From the NCBI GenBank assembly GCA_046704465.1, contig JBJKRV010000097.1:1-41832 (forward strand): a DNA stretch of 41,832 nt, written 5' to 3'. This document shows, piece after piece, positions 5,275 through 41,388 of this stretch. The first letter of the stretch is position 1, and each line of letters begins with the position of its first letter. The stretch is from Opitutaceae bacterium (GTDB taxonomy: Bacteria; Verrucomicrobiota; Verrucomicrobiia; Opitutales; Opitutaceae). The position numbers and the translations under genes were made by a program. Below the pieces are notes generated by a model. That model did not search any database. It was not told the DNA's origin and was given only the letters and a program-made list of their open reading frames with translations.

Positions 5275-6510
5275 TCAGGAGACGGATTGACGGATAGCCA
5301 AGGCGGAGCGCAACCCGACACTGCTATAGACATCGGAGGGCGAAATGCGGAAATTCGCAATCAGGCCAGTGCGGGCATAGGCACCACTGCTCCAGTACCC
5401 ACAGCGCTGAAGCGCACGACTATCGCCGTTTGAATAGGCATATGCAGAGTCGAGATAGGTCGAATAATTGGTCGATAGATCAGAAAAATCCGGCAATGCC
5501 AAATATTTTCCGGCGCTATCTTCCAATAGCTTTCCGATAGTCTTCCATGCCCCTACCCCTGAGGCCAGGCCCGTCTTGGATATAGATGAAATGTCCAGAG
5601 CAGTCTTTAACTGAATCTGACATCCATCCCCATGGTTGTAAATCATGCCAGCACTCAATTTCGCGACCCCTGCAAATCGGCCCATAGGCGAGACATAAGA
5701 TATCGTCACGTCTTCATCGCCGTTAACGGCATCGGTGATGCGGCATATTCCAGGGCTCAAATGGCATATATTGACGCCGTCGCCCAGCCCACCATCATCG
5801 TAATAGAGGTATGCATCCCCTGCAGCTCTGACACCATTCAGAAATGCTTTCGGCTGAAAAATACCCCCTTCCATGCGGCAATCTTCCCACTCAAAGATAT
5901 TGCCGACCAGATCCGCCAATCCAGCACCGGCAATACCATTACTCCACCAGCTCGCAGGCCCGGAGCCTGCCAGGCATCGTCCGGACACAGTGGCATCCAT
6001 AACTCCATAATTGCCCCAATTGTCGGCGTCACGTAGGTCTATGCCGTTGTTGTTGTTGCCCCTCACTTGGCCCCAATTGCCGGATTTTCTAATCCACGAC
6101 AAAATCCCGAATCGCTCAAACGGGGTCAGTAAATGGCAGGCCTCGCCATTGATCACCCGATTGCTCGCGGCGATCCGCGCCGACGGCCACGATATAGAGG
6201 TCCACGGCACGACTCCAGGGCGACAACACGCCGCAACCGTGCCGGGCGCATCTGGCGAAGTGCTCCCCATGCTCGCGGAACTCGCATCTGGCTGGCAGCT
6301 CTCGCAGACATCCACCCAGAAAGAAGGGATATTGATGCCATTATGCGCCGCCTGGGGCCAGCCGGATGTCACGAATTTTGGGATCATGGCCATGGTCGAT
6401 GTCACATCGACCCCGGACCCATCCGATTCGCTGTTATGGATGAAATCGCGCACCTCAAGCGATGCGCTCAAAATATCCTGGATCCCGCCCAAACTCAGAT
6501 CGATATCCAT
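5275..6510 (-). CDS. Receptor-binding tail fibre with an FGE-sulfatase / C-type-lectin-fold C-terminus (DGR target-like)
   Basis: Contains FWVDVCE...VPW..ISW, GNIFEWEDC and the C-terminus ALQRCGYWSSGAYARTGLIANFRISPSDVYSSVGLRSALA. ATG 6510 overlaps the upstream stop (TAATG). Confidence 0.7.
   Translation of the reverse strand: MDIDLSLGGIQDILSASLEVRDFIHNSESDGSGVDVTSTMAMIPKFVTSGWPQAAHNGINIPSFWVDVCESCQPDASSASMGSTSPDAPGTVAACCRPGVVPWTSISWPSARIAASNRVINGEACHLLTPFERFGILSWIRKSGNWGQVRGNNNNGIDLRDADNWGNYGVMDATVSGRCLAGSGPASWWSNGIAGAGLADLVGNIFEWEDCRMEGGIFQPKAFLNGVRAAGDAYLYYDDGGLGDGVNICHLSPGICRITDAVNGDEDVTISYVSPMGRFAGVAKLSAGMIYNHGDGCQIQLKTALDISSISKTGLASGVGAWKTIGKLLEDSAGKYLALPDFSDLSTNYSTYLDSAYAYSNGDSRALQRCGYWSSGAYARTGLIANFRISPSDVYSSVGLRSALAIRQSVS
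5278..5415 (-). other. Putative DGR variable region (VR)
   Basis: About 15 of 34 codons are NNY types (TAC, AGC, AGT, TAT, ACT, ATT, AAT, TTC, GAT, GTC...), as expected if they derive from diversified AAY codons. No template copy is available in the window to confirm this. Confidence 0.4.
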
Positions 6511-26929: not shown

Positions 26930-26990
26930 CACCGGCTCCCCTCAAGAAAGGTTTGGCGGCCGGATGGCCCGCCTATCGCCACCGCTGCAC

Positions 26991-27080
26991 GTCCACGCAT
27001 GTCCACCATGTCCACACCGTACATTTCGTCCATGCCTTTTCGTGTTGTTGTGGAGAAAACCATCCGGCCGCCTCGTCCAC
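26991..27080 (+). repeat. GTCCAY array D
   Basis: GTCCAC at 26991, 27001 and 27010, GTCCAT at 27028 and GTCCAC at 27075. All lie in the 193-bp intergenic region 26933-27125. Confidence 0.7.
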
Positions 27081-32719: not shown

Positions 32720-34402
32720 ATGGATTGGGCTCAAACCATGACCGACCGACTGTCCCGGGCCGTGAACGGCGAAAAGGACAGGATCATTGCCGAATACCGG
32801 GCCATGACCGGCAAAAGTGCGGCGACCCTTTATCGGATCGCGAAGCAGCACGGGTTCGATTCGGGCCGCAAGCCACGGGAAGACAAGGGCTGCCTGCGCT
32901 GCGGCATCTCCGAGGATGTCCTGCAATTCATATCCGCGCTGATCTCCGAGACGCGCCGCCAGGTCAAGGGCACGATCCTTCCGCTGTCCGAGGCCATGGA
33001 GATCGCCATCGACAACGGCGTGATCGAGCGCGGCCAGATATCGGAAGCGCGCCTTCAGGCCATACTCCGGGAGCGAGAGATGAACAGCACCGCCCTGAAC
33101 GCCGAAGACCCGTCCATCCGCATGGCGAGCCTTCACCCGAACCACGTTCACGTCTTCGACGCTTCGATCTGCATCCAATACTACCTCAAAAATTGCCGTG
33201 GCCTTGCCATTATGGATGAGCGGGATTTCCGGGAGAAAAAGCCGAAGAACTTCGAAAAGATCAAGCGCCGCATCTTCAGGCTCATTCTCGCTGATCATTT
33301 CAGCCATTTTTTGTTCGTCAAATATTTTGAAACAACTGGTGAAAACCAGCTCATGACCTACGATTTTCTGACCTCGGCATGGCACGCCAAGGATCACGAA
33401 AAATGCCCGTTCCGGGGGGTGCCGAAGTTCTTGTTGATGGACGCCGGATCCGCGAACATCGCCAAGGGCATCATGGGCTTGCTCGGACGTCTTGACGTCG
33501 AATTGCCCAAAAACATGCCCCACAACCCGAAACGGCAGGGCTCGGCGGAAGAGGCGCAAAACCTCATCGAAACCCACTTCGAAGCCCGCCTGCGCCTGCA
33601 ACCCGCCACCACGATCGAGGAGCTGAACGCGTGGTGCGAAGACTGGCTGATCTGGTGGAACGGAACCCGGAAGCATCGCCGCCACCGGATGACCCGCACC
33701 GCATGCTGGTTGACCATCACCCAGGAACAGCTCCGCGACCTCCCCTCCGACGACATCCTCCGCGACCTCTATGCCGAGCCCGAGGTCGAGCGCACCGTCC
33801 GGCAGGACAACAGTATTTCATTTCGCGGGGAAGAGTACCGCGTCAAACATATCGCCGGGATCCGGCCGGGCCGGAAGGTCCGCGTCATCCTCCGGCCGTA
33901 CGACTGGCCGGCCGTCGGCATCGTCTACGGCGAAGACGAATACATCGTTCAGCCCATCGGCAAGATGGCCGGCGGGTTTGCCGCAGACGCCGCGATCATC
34001 GGCCAGGAATACAAGTCCAACCCGGACACGCCGGTCATGAAGGTCAAGAAGGCGAACGAAAACTTGGCCTTCGGAACCGAGCGGAAAAAGGACGATGCCC
34101 CGTTCGGCGAGACCCTGCAAGTCTTCGGTCACCAGGCCGAAAAAGTCCAATCCATCCCCATGCCGCGCCGAGGAACCCCGATGCCGATCGGCCGGGATAT
34201 CGCCGCCATCTCCATCTCGATCATGGAGTTGTTCAAGCGCCTGCGCGACGCCGGCGTTCAGCTCACGCCGACCCTTAACGCGGACCTCCGCGCATCCCTC
34301 GGGGACAGCGTCTCCGCCGGCCGAGCCGACGAGATCGTGACCGCCCTGGTCGACGGACAAGACTGGCATGGGACCGACAACAACCTCGAAGCCGTCATGT
34401 AG
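32720..34402 (+). CDS. Mu-type DDE transposase (A protein)
   Basis: The rve-like core has VFDASIC, LLMDAGSANIA and RQGSAEEAQ, with DD35E-type spacing. An N-terminal HTH is present. Confidence 0.9.
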   Translation: MDWAQTMTDRLSRAVNGEKDRIIAEYRAMTGKSAATLYRIAKQHGFDSGRKPREDKGCLRCGISEDVLQFISALISETRRQVKGTILPLSEAMEIAIDNGVIERGQISEARLQAILREREMNSTALNAEDPSIRMASLHPNHVHVFDASICIQYYLKNCRGLAIMDERDFREKKPKNFEKIKRRIFRLILADHFSHFLFVKYFETTGENQLMTYDFLTSAWHAKDHEKCPFRGVPKFLLMDAGSANIAKGIMGLLGRLDVELPKNMPHNPKRQGSAEEAQNLIETHFEARLRLQPATTIEELNAWCEDWLIWWNGTRKHRRHRMTRTACWLTITQEQLRDLPSDDILRDLYAEPEVERTVRQDNSISFRGEEYRVKHIAGIRPGRKVRVILRPYDWPAVGIVYGEDEYIVQPIGKMAGGFAADAAIIGQEYKSNPDTPVMKVKKANENLAFGTERKKDDAPFGETLQVFGHQAEKVQSIPMPRRGTPMPIGRDIAAISISIMELFKRLRDAGVQLTPTLNADLRASLGDSVSAGRADEIVTALVDGQDWHGTDNNLEAVM

Positions 34403-34410
34403 GAGGACAC

Positions 34411-35649
34411 ATGGCTGCCAAAATCTACGCACAGGATCACGCCCCGATCATCCTCCGAGAGTTGACCCAACGCTGCGGAATCAGCCAATCGGACCTTGCG
34501 TTCGTCCTCGGGAGAAAGCTCGGCCGGAGCATATCCAAGGCCCTGGTCAATTTGGCCGTGAACAAAGGCTATCTGCCGCCGAGCATCCCCGAATTCAAAG
34601 CGGCCGTCGAATCGTTCATCGCAAGGAACGAATGCACGTCGGCCTGGCTGAATGACAACGGTCTGGGTGTGAAAGACATCTGGGAGGAAACGAACAACGC
34701 GGTCAAGGGGAAGCTGCCCGAAGGCTGCCGTGACAAAAGACGATCGCCGGCGATCAAGGCCGACGACCCGGAAATCACTACACCCTGGGAGGTAGAGATG
34801 ATTACACCCGACGCTTTAAAACATTTCCATCTGTTCCGCAACCCCTTCATCGATGACATCCAGAAGGATTCCGACGTCTATATGTCGGATGAGCATCGCT
34901 ACATCGAGGCCGCCATGCTGGACGCCTCGAAGCACGGCGGATTCATCGCCGTGATCGGAGAAGTGGGAAGCGGTAAATCCGTGATGCGCCGCAAGGTCGT
35001 CGAGAAGCTGAAAAAAGACGGAGACGTCCTGGTCATCTATCCGCAGATGATCGACAAGACCCGGTTGACCGCATCGAGCATCTGCGATGCCATCATCCAG
35101 GACATCAGCAACGAGAAATGCCGGTCGAAGCTCGAAGACAAGACCCGACAGGTGCAGCGTCTCTTGATGGATCGGGCAAAGAGCGGCTACCGGCACGTCC
35201 TGATCGTAGAGGAAGCCCACGACCTGCGCATCCAGACTTTGAAATACCTAAAACGCTTCTACGAGCTGGAGGACGGCTACCGGAAGCTCCTGGGGATCAT
35301 CCTGATCGGCCAAAGCGAATTGAAGCACACCTTCGACGAAGGCCAGAATATCGACATGCGCGAAGTGATCCGCCGCGTCCAGGTCGCCGAGATCCGGGGC
35401 CTAAACGGCAACCTCAAGGCCTACCTGTCCCTTAAGTTCCACCGTATAGGCAAGGATATCGCCGATATCTTCGACGATTCCGCATTCACCGCATTGAGCA
35501 ACCGTCTCACCAGCACCGCCAAGGACGGCAAGGCTAAAGTGTCCCATGCCTACCCGTTGCTCGTGAACAACTACGCCGCCCGGGCCATGAACACGGCCCA
35601 CGAACTCGGAGAAACCAAAATCACCGCCGACGTCATCGACGCGATGTAA
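34411..35649 (+). CDS. Transposition ATPase (B protein, AAA+)
   Basis: Walker A is GEVGSGKSV and Walker B is VLIVEEAHDL. An AGGAGG Shine-Dalgarno sequence lies upstream. Confidence 0.9.
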   Translation: MAAKIYAQDHAPIILRELTQRCGISQSDLAFVLGRKLGRSISKALVNLAVNKGYLPPSIPEFKAAVESFIARNECTSAWLNDNGLGVKDIWEETNNAVKGKLPEGCRDKRRSPAIKADDPEITTPWEVEMITPDALKHFHLFRNPFIDDIQKDSDVYMSDEHRYIEAAMLDASKHGGFIAVIGEVGSGKSVMRRKVVEKLKKDGDVLVIYPQMIDKTRLTASSICDAIIQDISNEKCRSKLEDKTRQVQRLLMDRAKSGYRHVLIVEEAHDLRIQTLKYLKRFYELEDGYRKLLGIILIGQSELKHTFDEGQNIDMREVIRRVQVAEIRGLNGNLKAYLSLKFHRIGKDIADIFDDSAFTALSNRLTSTAKDGKAKVSHAYPLLVNNYAARAMNTAHELGETKITADVIDAM

Positions 35650-36645: not shown

Positions 36646-37170
36646 ATGACCACCAAACGCACGAAACCGGTCACCATTCAACCCATCAAAGACCTCACCG
36701 AGGCAAACGACGCACTGGCCGAGATCGCCTCGGTGAAACGCCGCCTTTCCGAGATCGACATCGACATGAACGAAGCCATCGATCACGTGAAGGCCTCGGC
36801 CGACCAGCTCGCTGCCCCGCACCAGCTCCGGCTCAAGGAGCTGGAAAACGGGCTCACGGCCTTTGCCGAGCGGAATCAGTCGAAGCTCTTTTCGAAGAAG
36901 AAAAGCGTCGAGGTGGCCTTCGGCACCATCGGATACCGCAAATCCACCGAGGTTAAGCCCAAGCCGAAATTCAAATGGTCCGTGATCCTCGAAAACATCA
37001 AGAAATACGGCTTCACCACGGCGATCCGCACTAAGGAAGAGCCTAACAAGGACGAGCTGCACTCCTGGCCTCTGGAGCGTCTTGACCTTATTGGCGCCCG
37101 TCTCGTGACCAAGGAAGCATTTTGGTATGAGATCAACGAATCCGAAGTCGCCAGACAGTCGAAGGCGTAA
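36646..37170 (+). CDS. gam: Host-nuclease inhibitor Gam
   Basis: Length and pattern match Mu Gam-like proteins (LTEANDALAEIASVKRRLSEIDIDMNEAIDHVKA...KKKSVEVAFGTIGYRKS). Confidence 0.8.
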   Translation: MTTKRTKPVTIQPIKDLTEANDALAEIASVKRRLSEIDIDMNEAIDHVKASADQLAAPHQLRLKELENGLTAFAERNQSKLFSKKKSVEVAFGTIGYRKSTEVKPKPKFKWSVILENIKKYGFTTAIRTKEEPNKDELHSWPLERLDLIGARLVTKEAFWYEINESEVARQSKA

Positions 37171-37892: not shown

Positions 37893-38078
37893 ATGCGCAT
37901 CGGCACAAAAAGCGTTGTTTTCGGAGCCCATCAATTCTGGATTCACCCCTTTTTCGTCTTCATCGCCTGGTGGCGGCTCTACGGCTTCCCCTGGGATCCG
38001 CGCCTTTGGGTCGCGGATGTTTGCGAAATCCGTCTTCACTGTCTTGTTATAGCGCACAGGGTACTATGGATAAAATGA
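37893..38078 (+). CDS. Hypothetical 61-aa hydrophobic protein
   Basis: An AAGGAG Shine-Dalgarno sequence lies upstream. The stop overlaps ATG 38075. Confidence 0.45.
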   Translation: MRIGTKSVVFGAHQFWIHPFFVFIAWWRLYGFPWDPRLWVADVCEIRLHCLVIAHRVLWIK

Positions 38079-38809
38079 AAAAATATCTATCATTTGGTGG
38101 TGGGGTTAATTCGGTGGCTTTGTATCTTCACATGATCGAACTTGGTGAAGACTTCGAAGCTATCTTTGTGGATCACGGAGGCGATTGGCCGGAAACATAT
38201 GAATACGTTGAAATGTTCATGAGGCACTATCCTATAACCATTCTTAAACCTCAAAGGAAAACAACGCCTATCGGTGGAGATGATAGTGTTATATTCAGCA
38301 ATATCATAGATTTTTGCTTTGCCCGGAAGATGTTCCCCCACCGGACACAAAGATGGTGTACTTCCGATTTTAAAGTTAAGGTGATTTCCAAATACATCGA
38401 AAAGCCGTGCTTTAACCTACTCGGAATAGATGCTGGTGAGGCGCACCGGGCAAAAATCGTCAACCGCGATGGTGAGGAGTTGCGCTACCCGTTGATTGAG
38501 GACGGAATTGATAGGGATGGTTGTAAGGCTTTGATTAAAAAGCATGGCTTCCCCGTCCCGATGAAATCTGGTTGCTATATCTGCCCCTTTCAGCGTGTCG
38601 GCCAGTTGCGGCAACTACGGAGAGATCATCCGGAATTATTTTGCAGGGTAGAACAACTCGAAAACGAGAACAACGAATATCGTGCGAGTATCTGTAAAGA
38701 ACCTTTTTACAGCTTCAAAAAGCCTGTTCGTGAGGTTGCCGAAAAGAACATAAAACAAGCGCAGTTATGGCCGGAAGACGAATACCCGCCGTGCCAGTGT
38801 GCGCTATAA
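38075..38809 (+). CDS. PP-loop ATP pyrophosphatase, PAPS-reductase family (DndC/IbrA-like)
   Basis: The PP-loop is LSFGGGVNS. The C-terminal Cys motif is SGCYICPF. ATG 38075 overlaps the upstream stop (ATGA), and ATG 38066 is an alternative start. By eye the GC content is lower. Confidence 0.8.
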   Translation: MKKYLSFGGGVNSVALYLHMIELGEDFEAIFVDHGGDWPETYEYVEMFMRHYPITILKPQRKTTPIGGDDSVIFSNIIDFCFARKMFPHRTQRWCTSDFKVKVISKYIEKPCFNLLGIDAGEAHRAKIVNRDGEELRYPLIEDGIDRDGCKALIKKHGFPVPMKSGCYICPFQRVGQLRQLRRDHPELFCRVEQLENENNEYRASICKEPFYSFKKPVREVAEKNIKQAQLWPEDEYPPCQCAL

Positions 38810-38811
38810 CG

Positions 38812-39459
38812 ATGAAGCTAACCGGCATGAATGAAGCGCAGCGAAATGAATGTCCGAGTTTAGCGACTTGTTATGTGGCGGCTCTCTACGTGCAGCCTGA
38901 CGGGTGTTACTCGGACTGGCCTTGGATCGATTCATGGCACGAAACCCGGGACGCCCGGAATTACAAAGGGCCGCTGCCGGTGGTGGCGCACCCGCCCTGC
39001 CAGTTGTGGGGAGCGATGGCCGCAGTAAATTACGCCCGATGGGGTGGAGTGCACAACCGACCCGGGAACGACGGTGGTTGTTTTGCTGCTGCGCTGGATG
39101 CAGTAAACCGGTGGGGTGGAGTGCTTGAGCACCCGGCGAAGACGAGGGCATGGAAAGCCTACAGGCTGGAAAAGCCGGTCGGTGAAGGGTGGAGCCGGAG
39201 CGGATTGGGTTGGGTTTGTGAGGTGTGGCAAAGCGCCTATGGGCATCGAGCGAACAAAGCCACGTGGCTCTACTACAAGGGCCGCTCGAAACCACCGGAA
39301 CTGCGCTGGGACCGGCCCACCGGGACGCACCAGATAGGGTTCCATGATCAAAGAGGGAAGGCGGCGAACAAGCCGACCCTCGGCAAACGAGAGGCGAATG
39401 CAACGCCACTAGCGTTCCGCGATGAACTGCTGAAGCTGGCACTGCACTCAGCCACATAA
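38812..39459 (+). CDS. Protein resembling a C5-cytosine-methyltransferase core, without a recognisable SAM motif I
   Basis: AHPPCQLWG resembles motif IV (PCQ). LEHPAKTRAW resembles ENV. QSAYGHRANKATWLYY resembles motif VIII. I saw no FxGxG. Confidence 0.45.
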   Translation: MKLTGMNEAQRNECPSLATCYVAALYVQPDGCYSDWPWIDSWHETRDARNYKGPLPVVAHPPCQLWGAMAAVNYARWGGVHNRPGNDGGCFAAALDAVNRWGGVLEHPAKTRAWKAYRLEKPVGEGWSRSGLGWVCEVWQSAYGHRANKATWLYYKGRSKPPELRWDRPTGTHQIGFHDQRGKAANKPTLGKREANATPLAFRDELLKLALHSAT

Positions 39460-39579
39460 CAAGGGATTCTATGGACGGAATCCGTCCTGATAATACCTCA
39501 AAATGCGGTGTTATCGAGAATGTAACAAATGTGACAGACTTTGGATCTTGCCGATTTTTGTCTGCCAAGCAATCAGGTC

Positions 39580-40083
39580 ATGATGAAGACCAACTTGGAA
39601 CAATGCCGGCCTGGGCGCAAATTGGTTAATCTTAAGTTTACCGGCGATTGGGAGGGAACCATGAATGTACGTGAGATCGTAAAAGAGTGGCTTGATTCGC
39701 ATGGATACGACGGGCTTTACGACGGTGGCGAATGCTTTTGCTTCAAGGATAGTGAAGATTACGAGTTTATGGAATTTTGCTCCAACTTGGAACAATGCCG
39801 GCCTGGGCGCGAACTGGTTAATCTTAAGTTTACCGGCGATATAGCTGAACGTCCATATGTCATCGGATTACGGCATGCCATGCCAAGGACGCCTTTAGTT
39901 CATGACATCGTCAAGGATTTCATCGAGCTCCACGGCTTCGATGGCCTTTACGATTTGATCGGATGCGGGTGTGACGCGGGGACGCTAATGCATTGCAATA
40001 TCGGTTGCCAGGAGTGCCGGGCCGGTTATCGGATGATGGATCAGGACACGGGCAAACCTATCTTTAGCCCGAAGAAAGGATGA
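39580..40083 (+). CDS. Cys-rich protein made of two duplicated modules
   Basis: NLEQCRPGR-LVNLKFTGD and HG(Y/F)DGLYD...C.C each occur twice. Confidence 0.55.
   Translation: MMKTNLEQCRPGRKLVNLKFTGDWEGTMNVREIVKEWLDSHGYDGLYDGGECFCFKDSEDYEFMEFCSNLEQCRPGRELVNLKFTGDIAERPYVIGLRHAMPRTPLVHDIVKDFIELHGFDGLYDLIGCGCDAGTLMHCNIGCQECRAGYRMMDQDTGKPIFSPKKG
39591..39840 (+). repeat. 58-bp direct repeat, 192 bp apart (39591-39648 and 39783-39840, 2 mismatches)
   Basis: Direct reading of the sequence. Confidence 0.9.
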
Positions 40084-40087
40084 TTCG

Positions 40088-40309
40088 ATGACTCTCCATT
40101 TTGCAAAAAACGCTACATTTAAAGATGTTGTTGAAGACGGCTTCAATGGAATGAAAGCGAATAATTGCGATGGATTCGAATATATCGTCGGGACGATTAA
40201 GGGCGGACAATTAAAAGTTGTTTTCGAGCCCCCATATTCCTGCGAGATGTTAGAAATTGGTGGACCGGAAGACTTCGCCTTCACACTGGTTTCTGAAACG
40301 GAGGATTAA
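40088..40309 (+). CDS. Hypothetical protein
   Basis: A 73-aa ORF in a low-GC stretch. Confidence 0.45.
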   Translation: MTLHFAKNATFKDVVEDGFNGMKANNCDGFEYIVGTIKGGQLKVVFEPPYSCEMLEIGGPEDFAFTLVSETED

Positions 40310-40837
40310 TTGAAGCTCACCTGCCCGAATCCAAACTGCCGCCTGGTGGCATCCATAGAGGCATGGTTCAATGAAAAGGATTTCATCCGATTTATGACCT
40401 GCTACGGCACGCTGCCCCATGACGTGATGCGCCTGATTTTCCCCTATTTAGCCTATTTCCGACCGAAATCGAACCGAGGCCTGTCCTGGGAGCGAGCGGC
40501 CAACCTCCTGGAACAACTCAAAGCCGAAATCTACTCGGACAGCATTTGGTGGGGAAGCAGCGTCGCCAGGCCGAACAAGCCGGAGTTTTGGATCGAAGCC
40601 ATTCAAAAGATCGTCAACCAGGCTCCAAAAACGCTCCCTCTGAAAAACCACGGCTACATCAAGCACATCGCCTATGACCTGGCCGACGACGCGGATCGCG
40701 CCACCGAGCGCTCTCACATCGAGGCCGAGCGCAAGGGCACCCTCCGCCACGATCGCGAAGCTACCACCGCCGTTCCGGAACGTCTGGACCCGGAATGGAT
40801 GCATGAACGCTACCTAAAAAATACGGGCAAAAAATGA
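40310..40837 (+). CDS. Hypothetical protein (CxxC at the N-terminus)
   Basis: TTG start with GGAGGA 5 nt upstream. Confidence 0.5.
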   Translation: MKLTCPNPNCRLVASIEAWFNEKDFIRFMTCYGTLPHDVMRLIFPYLAYFRPKSNRGLSWERAANLLEQLKAEIYSDSIWWGSSVARPNKPEFWIEAIQKIVNQAPKTLPLKNHGYIKHIAYDLADDADRATERSHIEAERKGTLRHDREATTAVPERLDPEWMHERYLKNTGKK

Positions 40838-41388
40838 GAATCCATCCCAAACAGATCCGCATCATCAAGATGGCCCAACGCCAACTGGGCATTTCGGACG
40901 ACGACCATCACGATGCCTTGGAGCTCCGCTACGGCGTGAGATCATCGACGCGGTTGTCCATGGATCAGGCCAACGATTACATCGACGATTTGCAATCACG
41001 CGGATTCGTCCTGACGCCCACCAAGCCGAGAAAACCGAATTACAGGCGCCCTAAAACGGTGAAACAGGGGAAAAACGTGGTCACACTTGCCAGCCCGGCC
41101 GAGATCGACAAAGTCAACAACCTGGTCGCCCTGGTCCGCTGGAATGTCGAAAACGGCCATCAACGTTTCTTTGAAAAACGTATGGGCATCAAGTCCGGAA
41201 GGGTCCGCACCTCGAATGATGCCTACCTGGCCATCGAAGGCCTGAAAAAACTGATCGACCGCCAACTGGCCACGGACTTCGGACCCCGCTGGAAAGAGGA
41301 CATTCATTTCGGCCACGTAACAGCAACCCAGGACGTCAAGGAATACCTCCGGCTGCATCACTGTGACGCCAAGGGCCTCCTTTTATAA
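40834..41388 (+). CDS. gemA: GemA-like protein (Mu gp16 / DUF1018)
   Basis: KQIRIIKMAQRQLGISDDDHHDALELRYGVRSSTRLSMDQANDYIDDLQSRGF matches the DUF1018 pattern. The start is an ATGA overlap. Confidence 0.75.
   Translation: MRIHPKQIRIIKMAQRQLGISDDDHHDALELRYGVRSSTRLSMDQANDYIDDLQSRGFVLTPTKPRKPNYRRPKTVKQGKNVVTLASPAEIDKVNNLVALVRWNVENGHQRFFEKRMGIKSGRVRTSNDAYLAIEGLKKLIDRQLATDFGPRWKEDIHFGHVTATQDVKEYLRLHHCDAKGLLL

Follow-up and report, generated by a model that had tools for sequence, protein, structure and literature searches.

The window analysed here, the whole 41,832-nt contig JBJKRV010000097.1 (C97 in our numbering) of the 85%-complete Opitutaceae bacterium assembly GCA_046704465.1, has the layout of a Mu-like transposable phage, and two neighbouring genes lie on its plus strand between gam and gemA. 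Gene 1 (38075–38809) encodes a stand-alone protein of 244 amino acids of the 3′-phosphoadenosine-5′-phosphosulfate (PAPS) reductase/PP-loop family, and gene 2 (38812–39459) encodes, from the ATG at 38812, a protein of 215 amino acids that belongs to the phage family phrog_12600 and resembles part of a cytosine-C5 DNA methyltransferase. We think it likely that these are two unrelated single-gene accessory modules that have come to lie side by side, and not a two-component system. Gene 2, together with an attC-like recombination site of 85 nt in front of it, would be an integron-type cassette with a reversed layout, in which the recombined strand carries the gene. A cassette nature is probable for gene 1 as well, with a site of its own that has either decayed or is of a type that our models do not see, and the two bases between the stop codon of gene 1 (TAA, 38807–38809) and the ATG of gene 2 would be the joint between the two units.

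An earlier, sequence-only reading of the same DNA had proposed the two genes as a candidate coupled pair, and the relatives of the genes argue against this. In the neighbour survey, gene-1 relatives were found by phmmer (E up to 0.01, within 4–5 kb) and gene-2 relatives by hidden Markov model (HMM) search. We examined 130 non-redundant viral loci that hold a gene-2 relative and saw no gene-1 relative in the surrounding 4–5 kb at any of them, and a gene-2 relative is likewise absent from all six loci that carry a gene-1 relative (the viral loci L083–L086, and L181 and L182). The 122 upstream neighbours of gene-2 relatives fell into 106 clusters, and a Pfam search of 150 immediate neighbours revealed no recurrent partner. 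The commonest families among these were N6_N4_Mtase (6), NinG (4), ResIII (4), Helicase_C (4), PF00145 (3) and DEAD (3), and PAPS_reduct is not among the 25 neighbour families listed. The two closest relatives of gene 1 (90% and 74% identical) each have other genes downstream of them, and a sequence pattern that spans the junction of genes 1 and 2 had no match elsewhere in the viral and metagenome collections. The sequence-only reading had itself named a failure of the two genes to co-occur elsewhere as grounds for giving up the pair, and this is what the survey of loci returned.

Both genes are flanked by perfect 13-nt inverted repeats, the core of which is GTTAT/ATAAC. Around gene 1 the left arm is GTTATAGCGCACA (38046–38058) and the right arm TGTGCGCTATAAC (38798–38810), the latter holding the stop codon of the gene and serving also as the 5′ R box of the attC-like site. 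Around gene 2 the left arm, CTTGTTATGTGGC (38867–38879), is the 3′ R box of that site, while the right arm, GCCACATAACAAG (39451–39463), holds the stop codon and delimits the mobile unit on its right; between them the arms enclose the conserved core of the gene. In the whole window we count four perfect inverted repeats whose arms measure at least 13 nt and lie 100–1000 nt apart, against a mean of 0.585 in shuffled sequences, and two of the four are those that bracket genes 1 and 2. The other two, both of 13 nt, pair 5485–5497 with 6076–6088 (AAAATCCGGCAAT) and 26955–26967 with 27060–27072 (GGCGGCCGGATGG). A GTTAT.../...ATAAC bracket with compensating changes surrounds gene-2 relatives at at least 16 of 117 loci (variants include GTTATGCGCC/GGCGCATAAC, GTTATACACCAC/GTGGTGTATAAC and GTTATTGTGC/GCACAATAAC), and the gene-1 relative in L084 has an 11-nt bracket of its own, GTTATACAGAC/GTCTGTATAAC.

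The borders of shared DNA fall at the same boxes. The closest copy of gene 1, in L181 (86% DNA identity), matches the window over 38075–38810 only, and the closest copies of gene 2, in L003, L010 and L183 (78–83% DNA identity), match it over 38801/38806–39460/39461 only; the match breaks off at ATAAC both before and after gene 2 (38806 and 39460), and likewise after gene 1 (38810). The borders of the units are in this way located within the core box, as they are in integron cassettes, and the two genes move independently of each other. The sequence-only reading had noticed that the PP-loop gene is low in GC and had suggested a mosaic origin. Both observations hold, as gene 1 has a GC content of 44.9% compared with 60.2% for gene 2 and 58.7% for the whole window, and the GC contrast agrees with the unit-wise borders of the DNA.

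The attC-like site itself occupies 38797–38881 on the plus strand and overlaps the first 21–23 codons of gene 2 as annotated. Its elements are an AAC and a GTT core box, a variable loop and an inner stem whose 3′ arm contains a single bulged base, and it has the properties by which integron attC sites are recognized (AAC/GTT core boxes, an extrahelical base and a length of about 57–141 nt). Upstream of many gene-2 relatives we find a 60–110-nt imperfect palindrome, in the order YYTAAC box, spacer of 5–6 nt, GxTAA inner box, variable loop, TT(G/T)AxC inner box with one bulged base, spacer and GTTAT. A covariance model (R2) built from 12 sites, from which the site of the window and its close relatives were excluded, matches 38797–38881 with 41.3 bits (E 5.3e-8), and this is its sole match in the window and in the whole assembly; a further model (R3) gives 57.3 bits, and an Rfam scan gave no match for the site. 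Applied to 90 loci, model R2 gives 87 sites; 86 lie on the gene strand, and they often form arrays with a spacing of 300–700 nt. When 79 sites were aligned, 97.8% of the pair cells held standard pairs, compared with 22–43% in slid controls, and 138 cells were changed on both sides, indicating covariation; this alignment was fitted to the model, and its pair counts lean towards structure. Arrays of six to nine attC-like sites, all on the gene strand and 300–700 nt apart, are seen in the viral contigs L035, L009, L068, L039 and L031, which thus contain entire cassette arrays. Separately, two genes immediately adjacent to gene-2 relatives encode tyrosine recombinases that have a Phage_int_SAM_4 domain.

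Within the site, everything to the right of the AAC box moves along with gene 2, and the left box, TGTGCGCTATAAC, travels with gene 1 and is shared with L181. These patterns locate the crossover on the gene-sense strand, at its 5′ AAC box, and the bulged base is in the 3′ arm of this strand. In canonical attC sites, a crossover at the 5′ AAC and a bulge in the 3′ arm are properties of the recombined bottom strand. The strand of the crossover and the position of the bulge thus suggest that gene 2 is reversed compared with ordinary cassettes, so that the site precedes the gene. Cassettes of this kind would explain two further features of the locus, namely the perfect 13-nt repeat, because in the circular form the cassette end GCCACATAA would pair with GTTATGTGGC, and the tight spacing of genes 1 and 2, because one mobile cassette abuts the next.

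Several observations weigh against a cassette origin. The junction hairpin is not more stable than hairpins of shuffled sequences (z +0.7), and for this reason the case rests on the covariance model, the covariation and the borders of the units. The window holds only one significant attC-like site. In front of gene 1 we found none, with no AAC box within 130 nt and no match to the models, and after gene 2 a degenerate palindrome (39448–39523; ATAAC ... GTTAT with an inner hairpin) reaches a marginal score with model R3 (12.2 bits, E 0.17, minus strand). The fold of this palindrome has a z-score of −2.9, with predicted pairs that do not join ATAAC to GTTAT; it is possibly a decayed site or a site of another type. 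Furthermore, no tyrosine recombinase (PF00589) is found on the contig, and no integron integrase (TIGR02249) scores above the cut-off in the 85%-complete assembly. As there is no integrase, the cassettes were probably inherited and are not actively exchanged in this host, and phages with cassette arrays are their most likely source.

The unremarkable hairpin, the lack of an integrase and the single significant site could also be taken to mean that the repeats and the junction site are no recombination sites at all, being due to chance or acting as signals for transcription or translation, and that illegitimate recombination put the genes where they are. We regard this as very improbable, since an independently built model finds the site with an E-value of 5e-8, 86 of 87 matches of that model lie on one strand and in arrays, the covariation is strong and comes with a conserved bulge, the borders of the shared DNA coincide with AAC boxes, and the bracket with compensating changes is also seen around a different gene family (L084).

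Equally remote, in our view, is a two-enzyme pathway in which the PP-loop enzyme adenylates a substrate and the C5-methyltransferase-like protein of gene 2, working without SAM (S-adenosylmethionine), transfers this or a related group to cytosine, resulting in a modification other than methylation. Such a pathway would fit with the gap of 2 nt, which permits translational coupling, with the lack of a recognizable SAM loop in gene 2, and with two folds that are both compatible with modification of nucleic acids. It is difficult to reconcile with the absence of co-occurrence at the 130 and six loci, of a recurrent partner among 150 neighbours and of the junction from the viral and metagenome collections, with genes that move singly within sharp borders and differ by 15 points in GC, and with the presence of the gene-2 family in microviruses of 5–7 kb, which have no room for a partner. 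Two points speak for caution in the other direction: phmmer was run with the single gene 1 sequence, so that very distant PAPS-reductase-like neighbours may escape it, and a chance juxtaposition could still serve a function in this one phage. The sequence-only reading had argued from a cytosine-attacking cysteine without a methyl-donor site, next to an adenylating enzyme, to a chemistry other than methylation. We find nothing that ties the chemistry of gene 2 to gene 1, and such a chemistry is possible for gene 2 alone.

Gene 2 matches phrog_12600, an uncharacterised family, with an E-value of 3.5e-63, and sequence searches of Pfam, NCBIfam, PADLOC and PDB sequences, as well as a PDB profile search, gave no match. 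The protein contains VVAHPPCQLWG, LEHPAKTRAW and QSAYGHRANKATWLYY, and it shows the motif-VIII-like pattern QxxYGHxAxKxTW. Across an alignment of 37 members that are 41–60% identical to the protein of the window, the invariant residues are L25, Y33, A48, H60, P61, C63, W66, D87, A94, G103, E106, H107, P108, A113, Q140, G144, K149, T151, W152, L153, P199 and F202, and W42, R46, D47 and Y51 are nearly so; H60, P61 and C63 are invariant also in a set of 46 members. Judging from this conservation, the motifs are not chance resemblances. Only in this window is the annotated start codon at 38812 an ATG. In close relatives, which have the same site, it reads TGA and the gene begins at the ATG that corresponds to 38827, inside the loop of the attC-like site, and many members of the family start at the residue equivalent to V22 (here GTG 38875); ATG 38827 and GTG 38875 are alternative starts for gene 2 as well.

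The family is large. At least 7,876 of 8,000 scored candidates from a collection clustered at 90% identity are significant, and in a library clustered at 50% identity 1,850 representatives match, most of them of about 200 amino acids. Among GenBank phages it is found in tailed phages of Ralstonia, Pseudomonas and Caulobacter, in several microviruses and in the Xanthomonas phage fSU1. Very small phages with a member include fSU1 (PQ067315.1, 10,956 bp) and the microviruses MK765587.1, MH572337.1 and PP754850.1, and its presence in very small genomes argues that the protein works without a dedicated partner. Long members of the family include one NUDIX fusion and one HNH+AP2 insertion, and no more informative fusions than these. 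In the latter (P0209, a representative of the 50% clusters) the gene-2 match is split in two by an HNH_3 + AP2 module, which resembles the insertion of a homing endonuclease. Four viral contigs carry, within a few kb of the first copy, a second and divergent gene-2 paralogue that is about 42–47% identical to the protein of the window (L009, 82–810; L012, 1313–1978; L025, 1241–2026; L074, 5269–6021).

The likeness of gene 2 to the C5 methyltransferases lies in the catalytic motifs. HPPCQ corresponds to motif IV (PC(Q), with the catalytic cysteine); at motif VI (ENV) gene 2 has LEHP, with an invariant E106 and H in place of N; and at motif VIII (QxRxR) it has Q140..YGH..K149, in which the Q is invariant and the arginines are replaced by H and K. 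Motif I, the FxGxG loop that binds SAM, is absent from gene 2 and from its family (AALYVQPDGCY here, consensus AALFVxxxGxY), and so are, in gene 2, a target-recognition region and motif X (GNAV), as only about 70 residues follow the motif-VIII-like block and these are modelled as a loop and one helix. The AlphaFold (AF2) model has a predicted local distance difference test score (pLDDT) of 92.7, with residues 1–20 poorly predicted (pLDDT 62–64), and it shows no helix between the strand at 22–25 and the strand at 39–42, nor from there up to the catalytic strand at 57–59. Y51 and C63 are about 11 residues apart, and the equivalent separation in M.HhaI is about 32 residues. A Foldseek search of PDB with the model returned C5 DNA methyltransferases for all of the top 50 matches, which are weak (E 6.6e-3 to 0.2, template modelling (TM) score 0.24–0.41), and among viral folds the model comes closest to those of short phage proteins that carry annotations as SAM-dependent or cytosine methyltransferases (E 3.9e-5, TM 0.53). 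The sequence-only reading had described gene 2 as half of a C5 methyltransferase, with the catalytic motifs present and neither an FxGxG motif nor a target-recognition region. The motifs are indeed all present, with key residues invariant over the 37 members, the lack of FxGxG holds across the family, and the description appears apt in light of the model, where the SAM-binding half is much reduced, and of the fold matches.

We suggest that gene 2 derives from the cytosine-C5 methyltransferase fold and that it would have kept the cysteine (HPPC), the glutamate (LEHP) and the motif-VIII-like block, while the glycine-rich SAM loop and the helices that separate strand 1 from the catalytic strand would have been lost, along with motif X and the target-recognition region. 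In this scheme Cys63 would attack C6 of cytosine in DNA, assisted by Glu106, and the protein would act alone as a self-protective (anti-restriction) DNA modifier. Some results count against such a descent and activity. By sequence gene 2 falls outside PF00145, as a Pfam search of gene 2 and 36 relatives at E up to 5 gave no match to this family. The best PDB match in Foldseek has an E-value of 6.6e-3 and a TM score of 0.30–0.41, and alignment of the gene-2 family with seven genuine C5 methyltransferases from related genomes by hhalign gave an insignificant probability of 1.2%; the same alignment is collinear in motifs IV, VI and VIII, where HPPC is placed on PPCQ (GGPPCQ), LEHP on ENV, and YGHxAxKxTWLyy on GVPQxRxRxF. 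Furthermore, we found no biochemical assay of any family member in the literature. The sole paper that we found on a member concerns the Rhodobacter microvirus Ebor, whose Gp8 belongs to the family (tblastn 38% identity over residues 22–171, E 2e-11) and was published as a putative DNA methylase from HHpred evidence alone, and it reports 1.58% 5-methylcytosine (5mC) calls in Ebor DNA, which it cannot assign (PMC11980548).

Whether gene 2 would still use SAM we judge at somewhat short of an even chance. The alternative that gene 2, acting alone, has turned its Cys/Glu machinery to another reaction on cytosine or 5-substituted cytosine independently of SAM, for instance by deaminating it, by removing or exchanging a C5 group, or by transfer from another donor, seems unlikely to us. 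Classical C5 methyltransferases are able to deaminate cytosine or remove C5 groups without SAM, which counts in its favour. It would account for a protein in which the glycine-rich loop, the helices after strand 1, the motif III spacing and motif X are missing and the catalytic-type residues are nevertheless invariant, and it would agree with the lack of marked 5mC in Ebor DNA (PMC11980548). On the other hand, the invariant N-terminal residues L25, Y33 and A48, with the nearly invariant W42, R46, D47 and Y51, could make up a SAM pocket of a new kind, the viral proteins closest in fold bear annotations as SAM-dependent methyltransferases, and the most frequent neighbours of the family are ordinary DNA methyltransferases, as would be expected of an accessory methylase gene.

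We give somewhat less weight still to the notion that gene 2 does not act on cytosine in DNA but is an enzyme of RNA or nucleotides, or a protein without catalytic activity that binds or inhibits a host defence protein, and merely shares a Rossmann-like core with the methyltransferases. Cys63 and Glu106 are strictly invariant, which speaks for catalysis, PC, E and Q...K/R follow one another in the order and at the distances seen in the DNA enzymes, and the top 50 PDB matches are all DNA C5 methyltransferases and not other Rossmann-fold methyltransferases; what speaks for such a role is that every similarity statistic is weak and that no target-recognition region is present to hold DNA and flip a base.

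For gene 1, profile and structure searches bear out the PAPS-reductase-like assignment of the sequence-only reading, and both motifs on which it was based are present in the open reading frame (ORF), namely the PP-loop FGGGVNS (residues 7–13) and a CxxCP motif, CYICP (residues 167–171). Residues 1–207 match phrog_424 (“PAPS reductase”) at profile positions 161–379 of 460 with an E-value of 5.6e-39, the first 160 positions of the profile being absent, and a match to PF01507 (24.5 bits, cut-off 22.5) is confined to the N-terminal PP-loop part (residues 5–61). The AlphaFold (AF2) model has a pLDDT of 91.9, and its best Foldseek matches are CysH and adenosine-5′-phosphosulfate (APS) reductase (E 2.3e-5, TM about 0.5), followed by Fe-S PP-loop sulfurtransferases (TtuA, LarE) and GMP synthetase. 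Six cysteines are invariant over 42 relatives (C95, C150, C167, C170, C240 and C242), and the tail PPCQCAL (family consensus PPCECGL) is, with its CxC, close to the ECGLH of CysH. From these similarities and the modelled fold we conclude that gene 1 encodes a cysteine-rich PP-loop enzyme of the PAPS/APS-reductase kind, which would carry out adenylate- or sulfur-handling chemistry.

An assignment of gene 1 to a phosphorothioation system was considered and rejected. The PADLOC model of SspD matches gene 1 (E 5.4e-24) but is non-specific, as it also matches control genomes without Ssp systems. Phosphorothioation requires a PAPS-reductase-domain protein together with an NTPase partner (PMC12914056), and the adjacent partner of the Dnd, Ssp and BREX (bacteriophage exclusion) type 4 systems (DndD, SspC or BrxC) is lacking here: a search of the assembly for SspC gave no match, and near gene 1 on the plus strand there is no ORF of the size of DndD, SspC or BrxC, although DndD and BrxC themselves were not searched for. 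The solved structure closest to gene 1 by sequence is chain C of PDB entry 21fy (“PptA”, 270 amino acids; E 0.007, residues 93–198), which shares the CT..K and CxxC motifs with gene 1 and for which we found no describing paper. In L182 (1726–2310), the ORF that comes after the 74%-identical gene-1 relative starts with MGTKIEWADEVWNPVTGC and presumably resembles DUF5131 (phage Gp37/Gp68 family); a DUF5131 protein occurs once among the neighbours of gene-2 relatives.

The phage in which the two genes reside has its structural genes on the minus strand, and on the plus strand it carries a MuA-like transposase (32720–34402), a MuB-like ATPase (34411–35649), Gam (36646–37170) and GemA (40834–41388; PF06252, 42.8 bits). 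A megablast search of its early region against GenBank phages gave no match. The interval from gam to gemA is the semi-essential early region of Mu, and genes 1 and 2 are located within it. Mom, by comparison, is encoded by a late gene at the right end of Mu and has an acetyltransferase-like fold. The sequence-only reading had likened the position of the two genes to that of mom, and this analogy fails because they lie in the semi-essential early region and not at the right end. After gene 2 follows a second island of low GC (46.7%, 39460–40309). It contains an ORF (39541–40083) for a cysteine-rich protein of 180 amino acids with an internal duplication of about 20 residues (NLEQCRPGRKLVNLKFTGD / NLEQCRPGRELVNLKFTGD), which had no Pfam or PHROG match.

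What does the locus then tell us? With the proposed two-enzyme pathway refuted, laboratory effort on the pair can be spared, and genes 1 and 2 are probably independent DNA-modification or anti-defence accessory genes. The remaining interest is in the family of small C5-methyltransferase-like proteins and in the reversed cassette. The gene-2 family is among the larger uncharacterised families of phage proteins and extends from Mu-like phages to 5-kb microviruses, and although the catalytic residues found in cytosine methylases are retained in it, it has nothing of what is known to bind SAM or to choose a DNA sequence. Its function would define either the smallest known DNA methylase or a new reaction on a DNA base. 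It may be, though we do not think it likely, that phrog_12600 is a new class of minimal, SAM-independent Cys/Glu enzymes with a reaction on cytosine other than methyl transfer, or else a methylase that has an entirely new cofactor pocket and dispenses with a target-recognition region. In either case phrog_12600, which has thousands of members in tailed phages and microviruses, would be a general counter-defence of phages that spreads as integron-type cassettes. The locus in addition offers a clean case, with borders at the level of single bases, of reversed integron-style cassettes that move accessory genes between unrelated phages.

Compared with the PF00145 enzymes (M.HaeIII, 1dct; M.HhaI; DNMT1; DNMT3), gene 2 has the same order and spacing of the PC cysteine, a glutamate strand (LEHP, where the enzymes have ENV) and a Q...basic...basic block (where they have QxRxR), but it lacks FxGxG, any helix from strand 1 up to the catalytic strand, motif X and a target-recognition region, has about 20 fewer residues before the cysteine, and measures 190–215 amino acids, whereas the classical enzymes have roughly 330 or more. 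Gp8 of Ebor is of the same family and, like gene 2, an optional accessory gene; it is shorter (163 amino acids), has no C-terminal helix, and its activity is likewise putative. Gene 1 has the fold, the PF01507 domain and the PP-loop-like motif SFGGGVNS in common with PAPS/APS reductases (CysH, 1sur and 6vpu; APS reductase, 2goy), a CxxC pair as in the Fe-S APS reductases, and a C-terminal CxC tail comparable to the ECGLH tail of CysH, but no sulfate-assimilation context surrounds it. With DndC, SspD and BrxP of the phosphorothioation systems it shares the PAPS-reductase domain, and differs from them in that it stands alone.

Integrons, and clusters of attC sites lacking an integrase (CALINs), occur in phages and often carry methyltransferase genes (Qi et al., 2023; PMC9892861). 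The site and units described here resemble these in the AAC/GTT boxes, the bulged inner stem, the variable loop, the length of about 75–85 nt, the single-gene units and the arrays in related phage contigs, and methyltransferase genes are typical cargo there. The differences are that the site here stands before the gene and the gene is on the strand that carries the bulge, unlike in usual integron cassettes, and that there is a single clear site here and no integrase on the contig or in the assembly. As for Mu itself, the semi-essential early region is the place in which Mu-like phages house early genes that are not essential, and genes 1 and 2 are found just there; although neither of the two proteins is related to Mom, a self-protective modification of DNA would parallel the effect that mom has in Mu.

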